Shown here: positions 9,508 through 58,123 of the stretch, piece after piece
Layout: the number at the start of each line of letters is the position of its first letter
Position numbering within the stretch: position 1 is the first letter of the stretch
Notes under the pieces: model-generated
Database searches by the model: none
What the model saw: the letters and a program-made list of their open reading frames with translations, nothing else
Told to the model about the DNA's origin: nothing
Translations under genes and position numbers: made by a program
Virus record (IMG/VR): IMGVR_UViG_3300032270_001445
Location: 21,239 to 85,238 of that record
From: a virus
Taxonomy: Duplodnaviria; Caudoviricetes
Direction: 5' to 3' (one strand)
Length of the DNA stretch: 64,000 nt

Positions 9508-9825
9508 TTACTCGGACTTGCCGAAGACCTTCTCCAGTTCAGCCTTTTGCGCTGCGGTGAGCTCGTCTGGCTTTGGCGAAGGGGCGTCGGCTTCAACCGT
9601 GCAGCCCTGTGCTACTGCCTGAACGAGGTACTTCGCCTTAATGTTGGCAACGCTGAGGTGGAATCTAGCAAAGGTCCCGTCCCCAAAAACGATTGAGGAA
9701 AGACCGTCATTAGTTCTTACCTTGACAATCTGGTCGTCGGCAACTGCCGCCTTTGCCGCCGTAACGGCCTTCTTGGCAACTGCAGATGAATCTACTACAG
9801 GAGCTTCCTTCTTATCTTCAAACAT
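9508..9825 (-). CDS. Small virion/head-associated protein
   Basis: Between capsid and adaptor genes; GGAG RBS. Confidence 0.55.
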   Translation of the reverse strand: MFEDKKEAPVVDSSAVAKKAVTAAKAAVADDQIVKVRTNDGLSSIVFGDGTFARFHLSVANIKAKYLVQAVAQGCTVEADAPSPKPDELTAAQKAELEKVFGKSE

Positions 9826-9886: not shown

Positions 9887-11122
9887 TTAGGCTGTTACGC
9901 GAATCTTTGACTGGAACTGAGGTGCCTTGTTGGCAAACCCGAACATCACATACATGATGTAGAGGCGCGTAAGGGCACCGTTCACGCCGATTGGAATCTC
10001 GAGGGTCGTGATTGAGTCAGAGCCAAGATATGGCATTGACCAACCGGCCTCGTCTACCACGTACATATCGCGGTAGCTGGTTCCGGAGATTGCGTATCCA
10101 CCGATGGCATCACCAGGAACGGCAAGGATTGGCAAGTTGCCAGCTGCCGTAACTACTGAACCGAAGGTTGCGCCAGCAGCCTGATCCGTCTGCGAAGGTG
10201 CATTGTAACGAACGAGGTTTGTAAGCTCGTTCACAAGACCAGCGTAGTCGGTTGGGGTGCAGACGATGGCCGACGGAGCGCCACCGTTGTCCAGAACGCC
10301 AGCAACTGCGGTGTTGATGGTGGACAGGTATGAAGCCGTCCCCTTGCCAACAATGCCGTTACCAGCAGCTGCAGCGGACCCGAGCAGCTTGCGAAGCCCG
10401 TCAAACGAGTTGGCATCATAAGCACCAAGCTCGGTTGTTGAGGTAGCACCTGTCGTAACCGTTGCGTTGCCCTGGAACAGGGTCTTCTGAAGCTTGTGGG
10501 CAATGCCGGTCACGCCGCTGCCAAGCTCCTGCGAAAGGCCATTGAACGGCGAGCCGCCCTGACCAAGCGCGAACTGATTCTTGAGCGTGATACCACGGCG
10601 TGTCGCAAGAACGGCCACGTTGGTCGTCTGGCGTGAATACGTCGCGTTATCGTCGGTCACAGTGCCAGTTTCAGTCTGGAAGACTGCGTCACCGTAAGCC
10701 GTCTGCTGGTTGAACGCGTGCACGAGGCCGTTTGCAGGCTCCTTGCGGATGCGCTCAAAGAATGGGAACTTCTTCACGAACAGGCTGTAAAGGATTGGCT
10801 CGAGGTCCTGGCGGATAAGCGCCGAACCGCTGCTGCTGTCAAGTGCCTTTGCAATCTGTGGGTTTGACATCGCAAGCTGGTTAAGCACGGCCGAATCGGC
10901 CTGCTTGCCTGCCTGTGTCGAAGCCTGAACATCAAGCATCTCGTTGAGTTCAGTTGCCGAAAGCTTTGAGAACTTCTTGCGAAGCTCGCGCTGAACGGCA
11001 TATGCCTCGGCTGGGTCAAACGATGACTTCTTATCTACATCGATGTCTCGACCGATGTGGCCGTCGTTAAGGGAGTTTAGACCCTTCTCGACGTCCTGTA
11101 GCTTCTCTCGTATCTCAGACAT
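9887..11122 (-). CDS. Major capsid protein (HK97 fold)
   Basis: 411 aa directly after protease/scaffold; LIRQDLEP, FDGLRKLL, PSAIVC pattern, YVMFGFANKAPQFQSKI end. Confidence 0.85.
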   Translation of the reverse strand: MSEIREKLQDVEKGLNSLNDGHIGRDIDVDKKSSFDPAEAYAVQRELRKKFSKLSATELNEMLDVQASTQAGKQADSAVLNQLAMSNPQIAKALDSSSGSALIRQDLEPILYSLFVKKFPFFERIRKEPANGLVHAFNQQTAYGDAVFQTETGTVTDDNATYSRQTTNVAVLATRRGITLKNQFALGQGGSPFNGLSQELGSGVTGIAHKLQKTLFQGNATVTTGATSTTELGAYDANSFDGLRKLLGSAAAAGNGIVGKGTASYLSTINTAVAGVLDNGGAPSAIVCTPTDYAGLVNELTNLVRYNAPSQTDQAAGATFGSVVTAAGNLPILAVPGDAIGGYAISGTSYRDMYVVDEAGWSMPYLGSDSITTLEIPIGVNGALTRLYIMYVMFGFANKAPQFQSKIRVTA

Positions 11123-11125
11123 TTT

Positions 11126-13009
11126 CTACTCCTCGTCTTGCGCCTCAAGGACGCGCTGTACATATGGGCTTAGCCACGGAGCAAACTCCGGTGACTTTAC
11201 ACGAACTTCCTGCGGACGGTCATAAGACTTTCTGCCGACCCCAAGAGCGCTGATGCGCTCAATGAGTTCGAGCGCCTTCGAAAGATCCTCTTCGACCTTG
11301 GCCTTCGCCTCAGCAAGTTCGGTCACGCGCACAGAAATGGCAGCGACCTCCTCGTGAGCAGCATTGGCTGCATCGAGAGCGGACTTTGCGATCGACTTGA
11401 CTTCGTCAATAGACGAAACCTCGTCAGCCTCGACATTCTCCGCCGCCGGGGCCTCCTCAACGGGGGCCTCGACAACAACTTCCGCCTCTGCCGTTTCCGG
11501 CTGTACGGATGATTCATTTTCGCCGTCTGCAGACTTTTCAGCCTCGACTAGCGTGGCGCCAAGCGCCTCAAGGGCCTCAACCACAGGGTCCTTCTCGGAC
11601 TCTTCGGCCTCGGCATCCTCTTCTACGTTAACGGCTGGCTCAGTATCCTCTGGGCTGGCTGAGGCCTTAACCTCTTCCTTCTCCTCGGCCTGATCAACTT
11701 CAGCAACTGGCTCCATTGCTGGGGCCTGCTGCCTCTCGTCTCCATCCGTGCTGACCGTAACGGTCACGCGAGTCTTCTTCTCTTCGATTTCCATTGAACT
11801 CTCCTGTTCATTCTTCTTGCTTGACGTAAATCCATTGGACACAACGCCGGAGGATGACGCCTCTTCCGTTGCTGTATCTTCGACGTCAATGCCACCAGCA
11901 CCAGTATCAGTCTCGACTTCGGCGAGCGAAGATCGAATCTGCCATGACCATTTCTGGTGCATGTCCTGGCGTTCAGCAAGGAAATTTGCAATCCCCTGCT
12001 GATTTTGTCTGGTAGCAACGTCAAATGCGGAGAGAATCCGCTTGATAAGGGCCTCGTTTGCGGAATAGACCGAAGAAGCCAAGCTTTCTGGGTCGTAGTC
12101 ATCCGCAATTGGCTGTGGCGAGGACATGAGGGCAAGCTCTCTTATCTCTGCAGGGGCAGGGACGTTAAGCTTTCTAATGTTCTCGGCGAGCGGATCTAGC
12201 GAGCCGTAGACATCCTCGTAGATCTCGCCAAAAAGCTCATGATACTGAGCAAAGGCTGGCCCAACAACGTTCCAATGCGCTCCGTGGGCCTTCACATAGA
12301 GGGCCGCAGAGTCGGCAAGCACGCCAGCAAGGGCTCCGGCAAGGGCAATGTTTTCCGGTGACGTCTCGCCCTCAATCTCAAGAGACTTGATCGAATCAAT
12401 AATCTCCCTGGCCTTTGCAAACTTATTGTTGATCTCTTCGTAGTCTTCACCAGACTCGATGCTGTCGAGGTTTACACCTGCAGCCTTGATGCTCTTAATT
12501 GCATTGTGCAAGTAGGATCTCTGGTTCGCCGGAATCCCTACAACGCTTGCCTCCATGAGGCGAACCTTCTCGATAACAATGGACTCAGGCTGGCTGTCCG
12601 TAGCCGCCTTGCGGCTTGCCTTCTCGACTCGTGCGCCAATGGATAGTCCGAGCTTGACGCCGCGCTTGATTGCGCGATATGCGCGAAGTGCCTCTGGGTT
12701 TTCGTCCTCGTTTACGACACGAATGTTGACGTCCAGGTCATAAACCTCTTGCCCAGTCTCGGAGTCAAATCGCTTGACAATCTGAGCGTCCATTGCGGAT
12801 CCAAAAAGATCTTCTGGAACGTTGTAGTTGTGATTAAGAAACACAGTCATATTCTGTCTTGCCGTATCGGCCATTGACTTCAACGCGTTCAGGGACATCT
12901 CATCTCCGTGAAGGTCCCTGATCGTGGAGGAGGTGGTCCCAGTGACAAATCGCTCGCCACCCTCATTTTCGTAGGCCTTCAAGGCATTGGTGTAAATCTT
13001 GAATTCCAA
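11126..13009 (-). CDS. HK97-type prohead protease fused to a Dps/ferritin-like domain and an acidic scaffold
   Basis: Protease: RDLHGDEM, FLNHN, GLSIG, EASVVGIPAN. Dps: AHGAHWNVVGPAFAQYHELFGEIYEDVYGSLDPLAENIRKL...HQKWSWQIRS. Acidic tail with coiled coil. Confidence 0.88.
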   Translation of the reverse strand: MEFKIYTNALKAYENEGGERFVTGTTSSTIRDLHGDEMSLNALKSMADTARQNMTVFLNHNYNVPEDLFGSAMDAQIVKRFDSETGQEVYDLDVNIRVVNEDENPEALRAYRAIKRGVKLGLSIGARVEKASRKAATDSQPESIVIEKVRLMEASVVGIPANQRSYLHNAIKSIKAAGVNLDSIESGEDYEEINNKFAKAREIIDSIKSLEIEGETSPENIALAGALAGVLADSAALYVKAHGAHWNVVGPAFAQYHELFGEIYEDVYGSLDPLAENIRKLNVPAPAEIRELALMSSPQPIADDYDPESLASSVYSANEALIKRILSAFDVATRQNQQGIANFLAERQDMHQKWSWQIRSSLAEVETDTGAGGIDVEDTATEEASSSGVVSNGFTSSKKNEQESSMEIEEKKTRVTVTVSTDGDERQQAPAMEPVAEVDQAEEKEEVKASASPEDTEPAVNVEEDAEAEESEKDPVVEALEALGATLVEAEKSADGENESSVQPETAEAEVVVEAPVEEAPAAENVEADEVSSIDEVKSIAKSALDAANAAHEEVAAISVRVTELAEAKAKVEEDLSKALELIERISALGVGRKSYDRPQEVRVKSPEFAPWLSPYVQRVLEAQDEE

Positions 13010-13160: not shown

Positions 13161-13205
13161 ATAATACACTAGTTTTCACACAAAATGCAGAGTTGTGTGT
13201 ATACT
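13161..13205. promoter_or_regulatory. Back-to-back -10 boxes: GTG-TATTAT (-, head operon) and GTG-TATACT (+, portal operon)
   Basis: ataatacac at 13161-13169; gtgtatact at 13197-13205, 6 nt before ATG 13212. Confidence 0.5.
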
Positions 13206-13211
13206 GTCATC

Positions 13212-13724
13212 ATGTGTGATGGGACGGCAGTCAAATGCCATTTGTGTCTAGAGCTGAATGAGGCCGAAACCGGCCTGATTGAGATTGTCCTTGCCATCCG
13301 AAAAATACAGAAAACCCTTGCCCCAATTATGCGAAGATACGAGGAGATACACCGGGCCCACCCAAGGTGTGCGATGTGCACCATCATGGTTGGGCCTGAG
13401 CATATGGAGGCCGATCTGGTCCCAGAGCCGATGGTTCCGAGGGCCAAGGGCCAGAAGCGGTATGCCGTATGCAACGACTGCCACAAGATCCTCTCTAGGC
13501 TTAAGAGGAGCGTCCCCCAGCAGATCAAGTATCAGCGCCACGTAGAAGAAGAATTGGTCAGGGTGGCGGATGAGGATGATAAGGTTTATGATGGTTTCTG
13601 GAAAAAGTTCCGCGAAGAGAATCCGACAGATCCATCGGCCGTCGGTAAGTTAATGGGAAACCTGGACTCTGTTGCGGAGATCATGTCTGAAGACTATGCT
13701 GAAGAGGTCGATGAGGATGCTTGA
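13212..13724 (+). CDS. Hypothetical Zn-binding protein (CxxC x3)
   Basis: CHLC, CAMC, CNDC motifs. Confidence 0.6.
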   Translation: MCDGTAVKCHLCLELNEAETGLIEIVLAIRKIQKTLAPIMRRYEEIHRAHPRCAMCTIMVGPEHMEADLVPEPMVPRAKGQKRYAVCNDCHKILSRLKRSVPQQIKYQRHVEEELVRVADEDDKVYDGFWKKFREENPTDPSAVGKLMGNLDSVAEIMSEDYAEEVDEDA

Positions 13725-13956
13725 AGTTAGCGAAAGCGTCGAGATGCAATTTGAGGACGGTAGATACGTTGTGCCAAAGTGGTGGTCCCGTCTTCCCTCA
13801 TTTCGTGGCATTGGGATGGTTGATGGGATTCGTATGATACCATTCAACTATACAGATGCCAGGGGCATTGTGAATAAAGACTTGGATCAAACAGCAATTA
13901 CTAACGCTATTAGATCATGGAGAACAAGAAAGCCGAAGGAGCAAAACCCGTGGTGA
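13717..13956 (+). CDS. Hypothetical protein
   Basis: GAGG RBS, overlaps both neighbours. Confidence 0.5.
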   Translation: MLEVSESVEMQFEDGRYVVPKWWSRLPSFRGIGMVDGIRMIPFNYTDARGIVNKDLDQTAITNAIRSWRTRKPKEQNPW

Positions 13957-16115
13957 TGATGCCCTGGGAGCGCGTAAGTCGCTCCACAGCAAATGTTCAG
14001 GCTGAAGCAGATGTTCAGGCAATAAAGGATGCAATTCTGATTCCTAACTATGACGCGCAGCCTTATGCGCGCGGGGCGGGGCAAAGTACGGTTCAGAAAA
14101 GATCAGTCAATATGCTGCGCAAGTGGTCGCGTAACAATCCGTGGATTCGCTCTGCGATAAATCTTCGTAGGCAGCAGATCAGCCGGGCGCGATGGGATAT
14201 TGTCACGATTGATGGCGAAAGCCAGGCAAACGTGGAAATTGTGCACAAGATTAAGCACTTGCTTCGTGATCCAAACACAAGAATGGATTCATGGCGCTCA
14301 TTCATCGAGCCCGTTGTCGAGGACATACTTGTTCTTGACCAGGGGTGCATTGAGAAGGAGCTGACCGTTGGGGCGCGTGCCGGAAGGAGCACCGACCCGA
14401 TTAAGAATCTTTGGCCAAAAGATGGTTCAAGAATTGCGTTTGACCCAGCATGGGACGGATCAAACCTTAAGAAGCCAAGGTACTTTGAGTACGACGATAC
14501 CGGCAAGGTCGTTGCTGACTACAAGAACGAAGAGATGGTGGTGATTGTTGCCAACAAGGTGACGTATTCTCCACTCGGGCTTTCCCCGCTCGAGGTTCTA
14601 GCGGAAACCATTGAGGCAGATCTTCGCGCGGCGAAGTACAACAACAACATTGTTGAACAGGCGACTCCCCCTGGCATTATTGATCTTGGCGAGGGCGTGC
14701 GCCCAGACCAGGTAGATGCCTTCAAGTCATACTGGGAAGGCGAGATTGCAGGCAAGAGCCAGACCGCCATCACGGGCGGGGGCAAGGGTGTCAAGTGGAT
14801 ACCAATGGCCCAATCGAATCGCGACATGCAATTCATGGAGTGGCAGATCTATCTCGCGAGAAAGATCTGTGCAGTCTTCGGCGTTCAGCCGCAAGACATC
14901 GGACTCAACTTTGATGTAAACAAGAGTACGTCTGAGTACGGGGCAGCGTTCACTGCCGATAACGGGATCGCACCGCTGTGCGAGCTGATCGCGGACTATA
15001 TTACCCGCGAGATCGTCTGGCTGTATGACAGAAACCTAAGATTTGTTTACACCGACGTTGGCAGGGAATCTGCCCAGGCAGTCGCCGACTACTACAAGGC
15101 CGCACTTGCAGGTCTTCCGTGGCTGCGGCTCAACGATGCCCTTAAGGAGCGAGGACAGGATGCCGTTGGCGACCTTGGCAATGAGATCTGGCTTCCGAGC
15201 CCGCTTGGGTACATGCCACTCAGGTACTACGAGCTTTACCTCAAGGGCAAGGTTGGCGACCCCGACCAACCGGCACCACCAACCGTTCCAGACGCTCCTG
15301 AGGGTGCAGTGGACGATTCTCCAGGCGCGCCGAAGCCGCCGAGCAAGCCGGACCAAGGCAAGGATCAGCTAGATTCAAAGCCAAATCCCGACATGAACGC
15401 GCGCCAGCAATCCGGCAAGAAGTCTGCTGTGATTATTGAGTCAGACAATGTCCTGGACGAGAACTGCCCCGCCCACATAATTGATGAGCTTGACATGTAC
15501 ATCGAGGCAGGGGTGGAAATCATTGCAATCACACGCTCAAAGGAAAGCCCTGATCTGATTAAGGATCTTCTTGGGGATTTCGGAATACCTGTCGCAGATG
15601 TAATTCGCAACACGTTCCCGGACGACGCCGCCCTCCACTTTAAGAGATACGAGTCTCAGAAGGTTGAAAGAGACGGCTACAATGTGGTCGCATTCTACGA
15701 TACTGACGAACAGGCGGCGCGCGCGTACTCTTCGTCTCATCCAACAGCGAAGAACATTGCCGAGGTTGAAATCGAGAACGCCGACGGGATAAACCTCGAT
15801 GTTCCTTCTGGCGTGAAGTCTGAGGCCCAGAAGGGTCTCGACTGGAGAAGAGAGTTTGGTCGTGGCGGTATTGGCCCAGGCCAGCAAACCGCACGAATGC
15901 TCGTTGGCAACAAGATGACAGTTGCTCGCGTCAGAAAGATGCGTTCGTATCTTGCCCGTCACGAGGTTGACAAGAAGGGTGAAGGCTGGGCACCAGGGCA
16001 AAAGGGTTTCCCTTCTGCTGGAAGAATCGCCTGGGCTCTCTGGGGTGGAGATGCTGGCAAGGCATGGTCAAACAAGGTAATGCGATCAGTAGAATCCCGC
16101 GAAGCGAATGGCTGA
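13917..16115 (+). CDS. HK97-family portal protein with C-terminal HAD-like domain and a further head-associated domain
   Basis: YSPLGLSPLE, PPGIID, DMQFMEWQ...ICAVFGVQP, RLNDALKERG; then Pro-rich linker, IIESDNVL...FYDTD HAD-like region and PSAGRIAWALWGGDAG domain. Confidence 0.9.
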   Translation: MENKKAEGAKPVVMMPWERVSRSTANVQAEADVQAIKDAILIPNYDAQPYARGAGQSTVQKRSVNMLRKWSRNNPWIRSAINLRRQQISRARWDIVTIDGESQANVEIVHKIKHLLRDPNTRMDSWRSFIEPVVEDILVLDQGCIEKELTVGARAGRSTDPIKNLWPKDGSRIAFDPAWDGSNLKKPRYFEYDDTGKVVADYKNEEMVVIVANKVTYSPLGLSPLEVLAETIEADLRAAKYNNNIVEQATPPGIIDLGEGVRPDQVDAFKSYWEGEIAGKSQTAITGGGKGVKWIPMAQSNRDMQFMEWQIYLARKICAVFGVQPQDIGLNFDVNKSTSEYGAAFTADNGIAPLCELIADYITREIVWLYDRNLRFVYTDVGRESAQAVADYYKAALAGLPWLRLNDALKERGQDAVGDLGNEIWLPSPLGYMPLRYYELYLKGKVGDPDQPAPPTVPDAPEGAVDDSPGAPKPPSKPDQGKDQLDSKPNPDMNARQQSGKKSAVIIESDNVLDENCPAHIIDELDMYIEAGVEIIAITRSKESPDLIKDLLGDFGIPVADVIRNTFPDDAALHFKRYESQKVERDGYNVVAFYDTDEQAARAYSSSHPTAKNIAEVEIENADGINLDVPSGVKSEAQKGLDWRREFGRGGIGPGQQTARMLVGNKMTVARVRKMRSYLARHEVDKKGEGWAPGQKGFPSAGRIAWALWGGDAGKAWSNKVMRSVESREANG

Positions 16116-21147: not shown

Positions 21148-21248
21148 TGGAACTCGGCACGTTCTTTAGTTACGTGGCAGCAGTTGTTATCGGCTCCACG
21201 CTCACGCTGGCCCTCTGGACTCTTTGGTTCAGAATCGTCAATAGATAA
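21147..21248 (+). CDS. 33-aa single-TM peptide
   Basis: MELGTFFSYVAAVVIGSTLTLALWTLWFRIVNR; TGATG coupling. Confidence 0.5.
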   Translation: MELGTFFSYVAAVVIGSTLTLALWTLWFRIVNR

Positions 21249-56662: not shown

Positions 56663-58123
56663 TTAGTTTCTTTTTGCTGCAGTAAAGTAAAATCCGGAGT
56701 TTCCGACATCCGCAGCGTAAACAAGGGCGTCGACAAGGTCGTCGTGCTCGCTGTTTGGGAATGCCATCATTTCCGATTCCAACTGCCTGATTCCAGGTCC
56801 GCCCTTGAGATGAAAGACCTTTCCTGCCTCGTATCTTGCAGCAAGGGACCTTGACCTAAAGACCTTGTCTCTTTCTGGTCGGACTCCTCTCGCTGGAAGC
56901 CTTGTCTCATTAATCAGTTCCCGCACGAACGTTGATTGATACTGGACAACCTCAACATTTACCTCGGTTAATCGTCTCGGCTCCTCCCCCCAAACGTCGC
57001 GCTGGCCCTTGAGCCCGACAAACTTTGCTGGCCAAAGAAGCTTTGGGCTGGATGGGTCGTCGTAGATTGTCCCGTCCCGCTCAATGCCAGTTAACCACCT
57101 CTGGTGACCCTGCTGAATTCTGGTGCGGTAAGCGCCAACAACGTAAAGGTTATGCTCCTCGTCCTCAACAACCTCAACTGCGGCGGTGTAGTCAGATCGC
57201 TCTCTCTCTGAAGCAGCAAGGTCAACACCGACTCTTCTTGCCCCAGGCGGTATCGAGTCAACGTACTTGAAGTACTCGTAGCGGAAAATGTTGCCGCCCA
57301 TCGAGGTGACGTCGTTTTGGTATTGCAGATTGAAGATTGGCGTCCCTAACTCTTCTCGTTTCTGCTCAAGGTCCTCAACTGTGTACATATCTGGCCAAAG
57401 CGGCCCATGGTCCTCAAGCGACCTCCTTAAGTACGTTGGTATCCCCTTGCTTGTGAGCTCTGCGTAGAAGTCATCCTCGTGCCATCTTGTGCCTATGTAC
57501 CAACGTGTTGCGCTGGGAACCAGCATTGGGTCAATGACCTGCCAATAGGTATCACTTGCTTTTTGCCTCTGAGTCGGCGTGGCGTTCTCCCTTAGGCCGA
57601 CAATGTCGTCTGCAATCAGCAGGTCAAGTCGTGGCCCTGGCTTGATTGACGTTAGGCCGTCGGCAAAGCACGTCGCGTCTTTTCCAAGGTTTACCCCCTT
57701 GATTGTCCAGACCTCATCGGTCCATTTTGACCCAGCAACTCCGCCTCTGGCCCACGGAAATATTTCCGCAAAACTTGCCGACTCTACAATCGTTTTGATT
57801 GCCCTCGATCTTGCAAGCGCATCAGAAAGAACGGACGTCACAATGCCAATTCTGATTTTTCCCTGTGTAACGCCAACTAGTCGGGCGGCACGGTGGATAA
57901 GCTGCGTAGTTTTTGCATGGCCTCTTGGCATCAGTACTAGCGCCCGCTTGCTCTTAGTTAGAAACTGCTCCATCTCCCTGAGGTGTCTTGGAAAGACCAG
58001 ACCGCTTACGTACTCGGCGAAGGCGGCGTCGTCAGAGGAGGCCTTATCCCTCAGCCACGAGCGGTATTGCTCGTTAGTCGGCGGTGGTGCTTGCTTCGAC
58101 TTGCTTTGCTTCAGTTTCGGCAT
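56663..58123 (-). CDS. terL: Terminase large subunit
   Basis: MPRGHAKT Walker A, LIADD Walker B, GTRWHEDD, GVDLA, HDDLVDA. Confidence 0.93.
   Translation of the reverse strand: MPKLKQSKSKQAPPPTNEQYRSWLRDKASSDDAAFAEYVSGLVFPRHLREMEQFLTKSKRALVLMPRGHAKTTQLIHRAARLVGVTQGKIRIGIVTSVLSDALARSRAIKTIVESASFAEIFPWARGGVAGSKWTDEVWTIKGVNLGKDATCFADGLTSIKPGPRLDLLIADDIVGLRENATPTQRQKASDTYWQVIDPMLVPSATRWYIGTRWHEDDFYAELTSKGIPTYLRRSLEDHGPLWPDMYTVEDLEQKREELGTPIFNLQYQNDVTSMGGNIFRYEYFKYVDSIPPGARRVGVDLAASERERSDYTAAVEVVEDEEHNLYVVGAYRTRIQQGHQRWLTGIERDGTIYDDPSSPKLLWPAKFVGLKGQRDVWGEEPRRLTEVNVEVVQYQSTFVRELINETRLPARGVRPERDKVFRSRSLAARYEAGKVFHLKGGPGIRQLESEMMAFPNSEHDDLVDALVYAADVGNSGFYFTAAKRN

Follow-up and report, generated by a model that had tools for sequence, protein, structure and literature searches.

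Why should a tailed phage carry a mini-ferritin in the middle of the protease that matures its head? The question is raised by a gene in the stretch of DNA analyzed here, 64,000 nucleotides in all (positions 21,239 to 85,238 of IMG/VR virus record IMGVR_UViG_3300032270_001445; Duplodnaviria, Caudoviricetes), which we refer to as the window. As seen in the list of open reading frames and in the translation, the gene is one uninterrupted frame on the minus strand (window 11126-13009) that encodes 627 residues. It has a TTG start, and TTG, GTG or ATG is found at the same start codon in its relatives. An earlier note on this DNA had placed a Dps domain at 11930-12360, within the 627-residue maturation protein. 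We found the domain at window 11918-12355 (residues 219-364), downstream of a Peptidase S78 domain and upstream of a conserved C-terminal tail, and we confirmed that it is a real and intact Dps domain with all of its ferroxidase ligands, inside a head-maturation protein. We consider it probable that this protease doubles as a cargo carrier and that Dps is its capsid-internal cargo, most likely one that protects packaged DNA from iron and peroxide. The parts of the gene are as follows; AlphaFold2 refers to a model of the whole protein that was built on 59 relatives.

11126-13009, minus strand: whole gene, encoding the prohead protease, Dps, an acidic linker and a C-terminal tail (stop codon at 11126-11128).
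12476-13009, minus strand: Peptidase S78 prohead protease domain, residues 1-178 (PF04586, phrog_80, AlphaFold2).
12356-12475, minus strand: linker, residues 179-218, with a helix at residues 190-208 (AlphaFold2).
11918-12355, minus strand: Dps (mini-ferritin) domain, residues 219-364 (Pfam, PHROG and PDB matches, AlphaFold2 with Foldseek).
11411-11917, minus strand: acidic disordered linker, residues 365-533 (~170 residues), net charge -40 (AlphaFold2, charge).
11792-11805, minus strand: candidate nested in-frame start, with the ATG of M406 at 11792-11794 and AGGAG at 11801-11805; a tail-only product of 222 residues is predicted.
11129-11410, minus strand: conserved C-terminal tail, with a long helix at residues 534-588 and a terminal segment at residues 589-627 (AlphaFold2, conservation).

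The domain was identified both by profile searches and by structure. A Pfam search matched Ferritin (PF00210) to residues 226-365 (E 1.1e-14; 55 bits against a cut-off of 24.5), and PHROGs matched the phage Dps family phrog_3636 to residues 224-362 (E 9.4e-24). The top match among solved structures was Dps from Pseudomonas aeruginosa, PA0962 (8ff9; E 8.8e-21), residues 11-155 of which align without gaps to residues 219-363 of the phage protein, with an identity of 31-32% across the full domain; 31 more distinct PDB chain sequences, nearly all of the Dps family, also matched. As judged from these scores, the match is far above chance level. In the AlphaFold2 model, residues 221-362 form a four-helix bundle with a predicted local distance difference test (pLDDT) score of 84-96. 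Its helices span residues 221-247, 251-280, 289-294, 307-334 and 338-362, the short one at 289-294 being the extra helix in the long B-C loop, as in the Dps fold. When the model was compared with the PDB using Foldseek, only Dps proteins were found at the top (template modeling score 0.83-0.89, normalized to the target).

The motifs that the earlier note had quoted are all present (HWNV at residue 245, YHELF at 256, DPLAENIR at 272 and HQKWSWQIRS at 351), and the ungapped alignment bore out its claim that the His/His/Asp/Glu ferroxidase ligands are intact. H245, H257, D272 and E276 (codons 12275-12277, 12239-12241, 12194-12196 and 12182-12184, respectively, on the minus strand) correspond, at an offset of 208, to the known ligands H37, H49, D64 and E68 of P. 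aeruginosa Dps (PMC10002758), and W246, which adjoins H245, aligns to W38. The P. aeruginosa protein is a 12-mer that oxidizes Fe2+ using H2O2 rather than O2, protects cells against H2O2 and cleaves DNA in vitro (PMC10002758). The phage domain, for its part, appears to be catalytically competent. The binding of DNA, a property of Dps that the earlier note had invoked, is unlikely here, because the domain is acidic (isoelectric point 4.78; net charge -9), is without a basic Lys-rich tail and adjoins a linker with a net charge of -40. Dps proteins form stable 12-mers with their termini on the outer surface, and, given that outward orientation, the formation of 12-mers would be compatible with termini that are fused to other domains.

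The domain has also been maintained. Neither the four ligands nor the Trp varies across 72 distinct fused Dps domains, and the same residues are invariant in 85 multi-domain proteins of much greater diversity, in which mean column identity is 8%. The median pairwise ratio of nonsynonymous to synonymous substitution rates was lowest for the protease (0.11), followed by Dps (0.17) and the C-terminal tail (0.31); by this measure the Dps domain is under purifying selection that is comparable to that on the protease.

What kind of protein carries it? Peptidase_S78 (PF04586) matched residues 103-173 at 29.1 bits (cut-off 21), and hence a profile search of the kind that the earlier note had proposed places both Peptidase_S78 and Ferritin above their cut-offs on the one polypeptide. 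In addition, the head maturation protease family phrog_80 matched residues 3-167, and the AlphaFold2 model showed a mixed beta/alpha protease domain at residues 1-176 (block-mean pLDDT ~59-87). H60 and S123 (in GLSIG) are invariant among the 59 relatives and are, by homology, the candidate catalytic residues of the S78 protease. The linker that follows contains a helix modeled with low confidence (residues 190-208; pLDDT ~50-55) and a conserved motif, (V/L)E(I/V)EG, at residues 210-214 (window 12368-12382; LEIEG in this phage), in which E213 and G214 are invariant. The motif is also retained by relatives that lack Dps. It is a candidate cut site for the protease, its role in cleavage being putative. 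We also searched for a cleavage motif common to the protease linkers and the N-terminus of the capsid protein and found nothing convincing.

On the far side of Dps, the model showed disorder at residues 365-531 (pLDDT ~30), a long helix at residues 534-588 (pLDDT ~87) and a short last helix at residues 615-626 (pLDDT ~60-70). A block of invariant residues spans positions 541-621, and the C-terminal tail is found in every full-length relative regardless of cargo. We regard the tail as a candidate capsid-targeting or scaffold-like part that likely binds the capsid interior. The earlier note had referred to the region downstream of Dps as a scaffold, and this is only partly supported. It is supported in part because the region has a 55-residue helix and a conserved tail, because no separate scaffold gene was found between the protease and capsid genes in any locus examined, and because there is a candidate nested start; on the other side, the C-terminal part had no match to a Pfam or PHROG scaffold family or to any other family in those collections, and the capsid protein has an N-terminal extension of its own. 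The candidate start is the ATG of M406, which six bases separate from AGGAG upstream. Of 16 distinct DNA variants, 13 retain an ATG or GTG preceded by GGAG at a distance of 6-9 nucleotides, even though the encoded residues differ, and three do not. Such a start is possible and recalls the lambda C/Nu3 arrangement, but GGAG arises readily in Glu-rich coding sequence, a point against both the nested start and the scaffold assignment. In a metatranscriptome from a lake, contig depths were not the same for the tail-plus-capsid region as for the protease region; they cannot rank expression and were not used in judging the nested start. The conserved extension on the capsid protein, ~95 residues that precede the part matched to the capsid core, may itself be a scaffold of the delta type; an AlphaFold2 model of the capsid protein had a mean pLDDT of only 33 and was too poor to judge this.

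The explanation that we favor is built from these parts. The N-terminal S78 protease and the C-terminal helical tail would form a constant backbone that is co-assembled into the procapsid interior, with entry by way of the tail, by analogy to the tail of the HK97 protease and to protease-scaffold proteins such as lambda C/Nu3. The HK97 prohead protease is said, in work by Duda, Oh and Hendrix from 2013, to be targeted into the prohead by its C-terminal part, and ~60-90 copies of the protease per prohead have been reported for HK97 and D3. A slot between protease and tail would hold small accessory domains, Dps in the case of this phage, of which capsid assembly would trap some tens to ~100 copies; cleavage of the flexible linkers by the protease would follow. 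Folded Dps (16 kDa), especially as a 12-mer, would be too large for the capsid pores and would stay with the DNA, where it would use H2O2 to oxidize Fe(II) at inter-subunit di-iron sites and would store the iron. The packaged genome, for which no repair is available as long as the virion is adrift in sunlit, oxic lake water, would thus be rid of both Fenton reagents.

Delivery into the procapsid is what one would naturally expect, because Dps lies between an S78 protease and a tail that likely binds the capsid interior, and the case is strengthened by the recurrence of the same Dps clade on other head proteases and on MuF (see below). Dps is also suited to the protection of DNA in an inert particle, because it works without a cofactor or an energy supply and uses up H2O2 and Fe(II) at the same time. 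The successive steps do not command equal confidence. Encapsidation of Dps is, in our estimation, highly probable; its release and retention in the mature head could go either way; and an antioxidant function within the virion is a tentative proposal, to which we give somewhat less than even weight. A bolder form of the explanation, which we think possible but doubtful, is that the capsids of lake tailed phages are in part encapsulin-like iron-oxidizing compartments, in which Dps would enter by way of the protease or scaffold and form 12-mers in the head, with iron mineralized and the genome kept free of Fenton chemistry.

Recurrence was revealed by an exhaustive search with the Dps domain, which returned 4,111 cluster representatives at E <=1e-3. 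Among the best 146 newly returned representatives, 98 (about two-thirds) were at least 300 residues long. Partner families were counted in the 85 multi-domain representatives that were scanned from these best 146 of the 4,111, with the following Pfam results.

Peptidase_S78: 24 of 85.
Peptidase_S78_2 (XkdF type): 3 of 85.
Mu-like_Pro: 1 of 85.
Phage_Mu_F: 2 of 85.
DUF5824: 5 of 85.
HAD phosphatase (Acid_phosphat_B): 3 of 85.
Zeta_toxin: 2 of 85.
RelA_SpoT: 1 of 85.

PHROGs added more head-maturation-protease families and head-morphogenesis families to the list of partners. Examples are P0249, in which MuF (residues 183-304) is followed by Dps (residues 511-647), and P0342, a protein of 1,951 residues with S78 at 17-166 and Dps at 396-534. 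By these domain matches, the Dps clade is fused repeatedly to several unrelated families of head protease and to MuF. We do not claim fusions of Dps to portal proteins (phrog_859): the matches span only profile positions 361-807 and overlap head-maturation-protease PHROGs. A separate observation is that P0241 (777 residues) has two tandem copies of Dps, at residues 38-181 and 206-344. In a FastTree phylogeny the fused Dps domains lie on one side of a branch that separates them from 112 stand-alone phage Dps proteins (Shimodaira-Hasegawa-like support 97), a topology that fits a single capture and later exchange between protease genes.

The partners of Dps bear on a second explanation, also raised in the earlier note, in which Dps is packaged and released and then enters the next host along with the ejected DNA, as T4 internal proteins and polyvalent effectors borne on MuF do. 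Once in the host, it would shield the arriving genome, bring down the levels of free iron and peroxide, or target the host's own DNA. One point in favor of ejection is that the tail channel could admit a monomeric four-helix bundle. Another is the presence of the clade on MuF and together with Zeta_toxin, RelA_SpoT, HAD phosphatase, polynucleotide kinase and RNA ligase modules, partners that are typical of packaged polyvalent proteins (PMC5512222), and a third is the ability of P. aeruginosa Dps, mentioned above, to cleave DNA (PMC10002758). Against this, a 9-nm dodecamer cannot traverse the tail, the ferroxidase site needs at least a dimer, and no ejection signal is known. We therefore see ejection as an unlikely explanation, if one to be taken seriously.

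Certain findings weigh against capsid-internal cargo itself. In the fused set, conservation reaches 97% or more at about one-third of Dps positions, so that the invariance of the ligands is, by itself, modest evidence. In one lineage (L066) all that remains of Dps is its C-terminal half, which has none of the ligands, and the domain can thus decay. Entry into the capsid, the cleavage sites, survival of proteolysis, the formation of 12-mers by doubly tethered domains and the binding of iron are all matters that we infer. Finally, stand-alone homologues show that the Dps clade can work in the cytoplasm. The closest short homologues are stand-alone genes for proteins of 143-145 residues, with 50-56% identity, in other phages of 90-97 kb that have baseplate genes; at the one locus examined (L089:9001-9435), the Dps gene lies beside genes for a replication initiator, a helicase loader and the DnaB helicase and is transcribed divergently from that block.

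This location favors a third explanation, namely that Dps has only a late cytoplasmic function, protecting replicating or packaging DNA or sequestering iron in the cell, with fusion as a route to high late expression and with the copies in the capsid digested and lost. Stand-alone phage Dps genes have likewise been interpreted as aids against intracellular oxidative stress (PMC8008677). A purely cytoplasmic function, however, leaves unexplained the recurrent fusion to unrelated head-internal carriers, and it leaves unexplained why Dps shares its slot with other small modules of head proteins. We consider it improbable.

The slot, which is central to the view that the protease carries Dps as head cargo, emerged from a comparison of the relatives. 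These have in common the protease (residue 1 to ~190), part of the acidic linker and the final ~85 residues. The content of the slot and the length of the protein vary as follows.

Slot empty: 437-471 residues.
Hva1_TUDOR domain: 530-573 residues.
Dps: 580-630 residues.
Tudor plus Dps: 671-720 residues.
Dps plus a second Tudor-like module: 735 residues.
Bigger combinations: up to 900 residues.

A further slot module, of ~100 residues and with a DUF6582-like fold (P0013 residues 192-305; SWDG...KLPFADV...AAASRL), sits before or after Dps (also in L015 and L055), and the ESM Atlas has this fold joined to head proteases of the S78, Mu-like and ClpP types as well as to MuF. In a tree of the backbones (106 rows), identical or 97%-identical backbones have different slot content, and the nearest backbone neighbors of the window protein (P0034 and P0035) have no insert at all. 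The presence of Dps changes at least nine times on this tree; state changes were counted for Dps only, as the Tudor pattern over-calls and was not used. In one lake contig, window 11783-12548 is replaced by 487 unrelated bases, a swap from which we locate one exchange point close to where the protease ends and the other at the motif EKKTRVTVTVST. This motif (window 11750-11782, minus strand; residues ~409-420) is invariant and lies within the disordered, fast-evolving acidic linker; it marks the downstream edge of the exchanged cassette. On the strength of these sequence comparisons, then, the middle of the protein is a recombination-prone, swappable cargo slot on a constant backbone. We also note a relative of 517 residues (L066:2259-3809; also L070, L072 and L073) that has kept Dps helices C-D (...NFLAERQEMHQKWSQQLRAS...) but lacks helices A-B and, with them, the four ferroxidase ligands; what is left in the slot is a decaying remnant.

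No other ferritin-like gene was found in five relatives without a fused Dps (one of them 94% complete), and Dps is therefore evidently an accessory rather than a requirement for assembly. This bears on a fourth explanation, in which a Dps 12-mer serves only to cluster twelve proteases and twelve tails and thereby to nucleate or size the procapsid, its catalysis being irrelevant. Dps does form stable 12-mers with outward termini, and scaffolds act as oligomers, but relatives with 97%-identical to identical backbones and similar genome sizes (79-85 kb) do without Dps, and the ligands are invariant in a domain whose purifying selection is comparable to that on the protease. Nucleation of assembly by oligomerizing Dps, as the earlier note had suggested, is thus unlikely as the selected role, and a purely structural hub has very little to recommend it.

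The weakest explanation, an artefact in the form of a chimeric contig (a concern of the earlier note) or a read-through of two genes, found no supporting point and can be dismissed with near certainty, because the genome in the source record (85,238 bp) has direct terminal repeats and is 100% complete by the CheckV estimate, because the same uninterrupted frame is found on more than 100 independent metagenomic contigs, and because the junctions are bridged in other samples and studies: contigs from X2 (another sample, of the probable source study) and X3 (a separate lake study) run continuously from the capsid gene through tail and linker to Dps, and another X2 contig runs from Dps into the protease. 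The sequencing runs that contain this stretch are lake-water or freshwater metagenomes from several studies. In the collection of cultured and sequenced phages we found no relative of the fusion, the sole match being a stand-alone Dps with 26% identity, and the best matches of the large terminase and the capsid protein in sequenced phages have less than 30% identity.

The cargo explanation also draws on the genes around the protease, of which two are of particular concern here.

9887-11122, minus strand: major capsid protein, 411 residues (SU10_MCP, phrog_752).
13917-16115, plus strand: portal protein, 732 residues, with a C-terminal extension (Phage_portal at residues 76-410, phrog_2859 at residues 594-727).

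The capsid gene begins 4 nucleotides past the stop codon of the protease gene, inside the end of which its ribosome-binding site lies, and at every locus examined it is the next gene after the protease gene. Its product is of the HK97 type (phrog_752; Pfam match to SU10_MCP at residues 101-389). Head-tail adaptor and head-closure genes lie downstream of the capsid gene, the portal gene is divergently transcribed, the large terminase gene is at window 56663-58123, and the genome also has tail-fibre genes. The portal protein is a second carrier of accessory domains inside the head. Its C-terminal extension comprises ~230 residues (window 15240-16115, plus strand), and the last domain of the extension (residues ~590-732) belongs to phrog_2859, a family of unknown function. 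A phrog_2859 domain and Dps share one polypeptide in 19 of the 146 cluster representatives, which come from other phages, and HAD-type phosphatase modules likewise occur together with Dps; on account of these co-occurrences, portal and protease seem to share one pool of head-borne accessory modules. Two small open reading frames lie nearby. One, between the protease and portal genes (window 13185-13724, plus strand), encodes a Cys-rich product of 179 residues with no Pfam or PHROG match. The other, directly downstream of the capsid gene (window 9508-9825, minus strand), encodes an Ala/Lys-rich product of 105 residues that has no family match and may be a decoration or head-associated protein.

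How much of this is new? Stand-alone phage Dps genes were already known, as was a ferritin-like protein in virions of phage G (PMC8008677, PMC12484599). The fusion itself is present in public databases under automatic names, for example "DNA-binding protein Dps [uncultured Caudovirales phage]," and there is an ESM Atlas cluster with Ferritin and Peptidase_S78. A literature search on prohead or maturation proteases (Peptidase_S78) fused to Dps or ferritin found no description or interpretation, and a survey of polyvalent proteins (PMC5512222) makes no mention of Dps or ferritin. What is new here is the swappable cargo slot, which holds Dps, Tudor-like or DUF6582-like modules, combinations of these, or none, together with the repeated fusion of Dps to head proteases and MuF.

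These findings bear on the idea of an evolutionary traffic between phage procapsids and encapsulins. A 2026 paper on the evolution of viruses and encapsulins raises the question of whether procapsids could acquire biochemical functions from scaffold-type proteins or from co-assembled cargo, and under its model for HK97-fold evolution, enzymatic cargo on a scaffold-like protein should exist, a prediction that is testable (PMC13669383). The protease-Dps protein is a concrete candidate for such a state. Virions are usually seen as chemically inert; if our explanation is correct, a retained, peroxide-consuming ferroxidase would be a built-in, energy-free defense of packaged DNA and could help to explain why phages differ in how long they persist in oxic waters under sunlight. 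Any iron that abundant lake phages store would, in that event, bear on virus-bound iron and on the Ferrojan Horse hypothesis (10.1101/674382). If the encapsulin-like form of the explanation holds, a corollary is that the slot would be a general, exchangeable cargo bay for virion-borne enzymes. The slot and the recurrent Dps fusions in any case point to a wider, undescribed toolkit of capsid-internal accessory domains, and the slot hints at a natural design by which phage capsids could be loaded with proteins.

Finally, we compare the protein with known systems. With members of the Dps family (PA0962/8ff9 and the Dps proteins of Listeria and E. coli) it shares the fold, the four inter-subunit ligands and the adjacent Trp; it differs in that the phage domain is embedded in a head protein of 627 residues, tethered at both ends, acidic and without a basic DNA-binding tail. 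Stand-alone phage Dps proteins, such as those of Lactobacillus phages, "Gratiaviridae" and Synechococcus phage S-SRM01, are the products of separate genes, whereas the fused Dps belongs to the head module. The HK97-type protease is likewise an S78 enzyme that is encoded directly upstream of the capsid gene and has a C-terminal region beyond its catalytic domain. In the phage studied here, however, protease and tail are ~350 residues apart, separated by the cargo slot and a long acidic linker, whereas HK97 has no enzyme passenger.

T4 internal proteins and polyvalent proteins (PMC3012670, PMC7697877, PMC5512222) reach the head interior through attachment to a component of head assembly; the prohead protease processes them, and they stay with the DNA. 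We propose the same scheme for Dps. The carrier in our case would be the protease itself rather than MuF or the portal, with an architecture and context that otherwise fit the polyvalent type, and the passenger would be an antioxidant and iron-handling enzyme, whereas theirs are anti-restriction or host-modifying effectors. Lastly, encapsulins with EncFtn/Flp or IMEF cargo (PMC11202242) combine an HK97-fold shell with an iron oxidizer of the ferritin superfamily that is directed inside by a C-terminal element, as would presumably be the case here. The locus nonetheless differs from an encapsulin operon in that it belongs to a tailed phage with portal, large terminase, adaptor, head-closure and tail-fibre genes; its cargo is Dps rather than EncFtn, and loading would depend on fusion to the protease rather than on a short targeting peptide.

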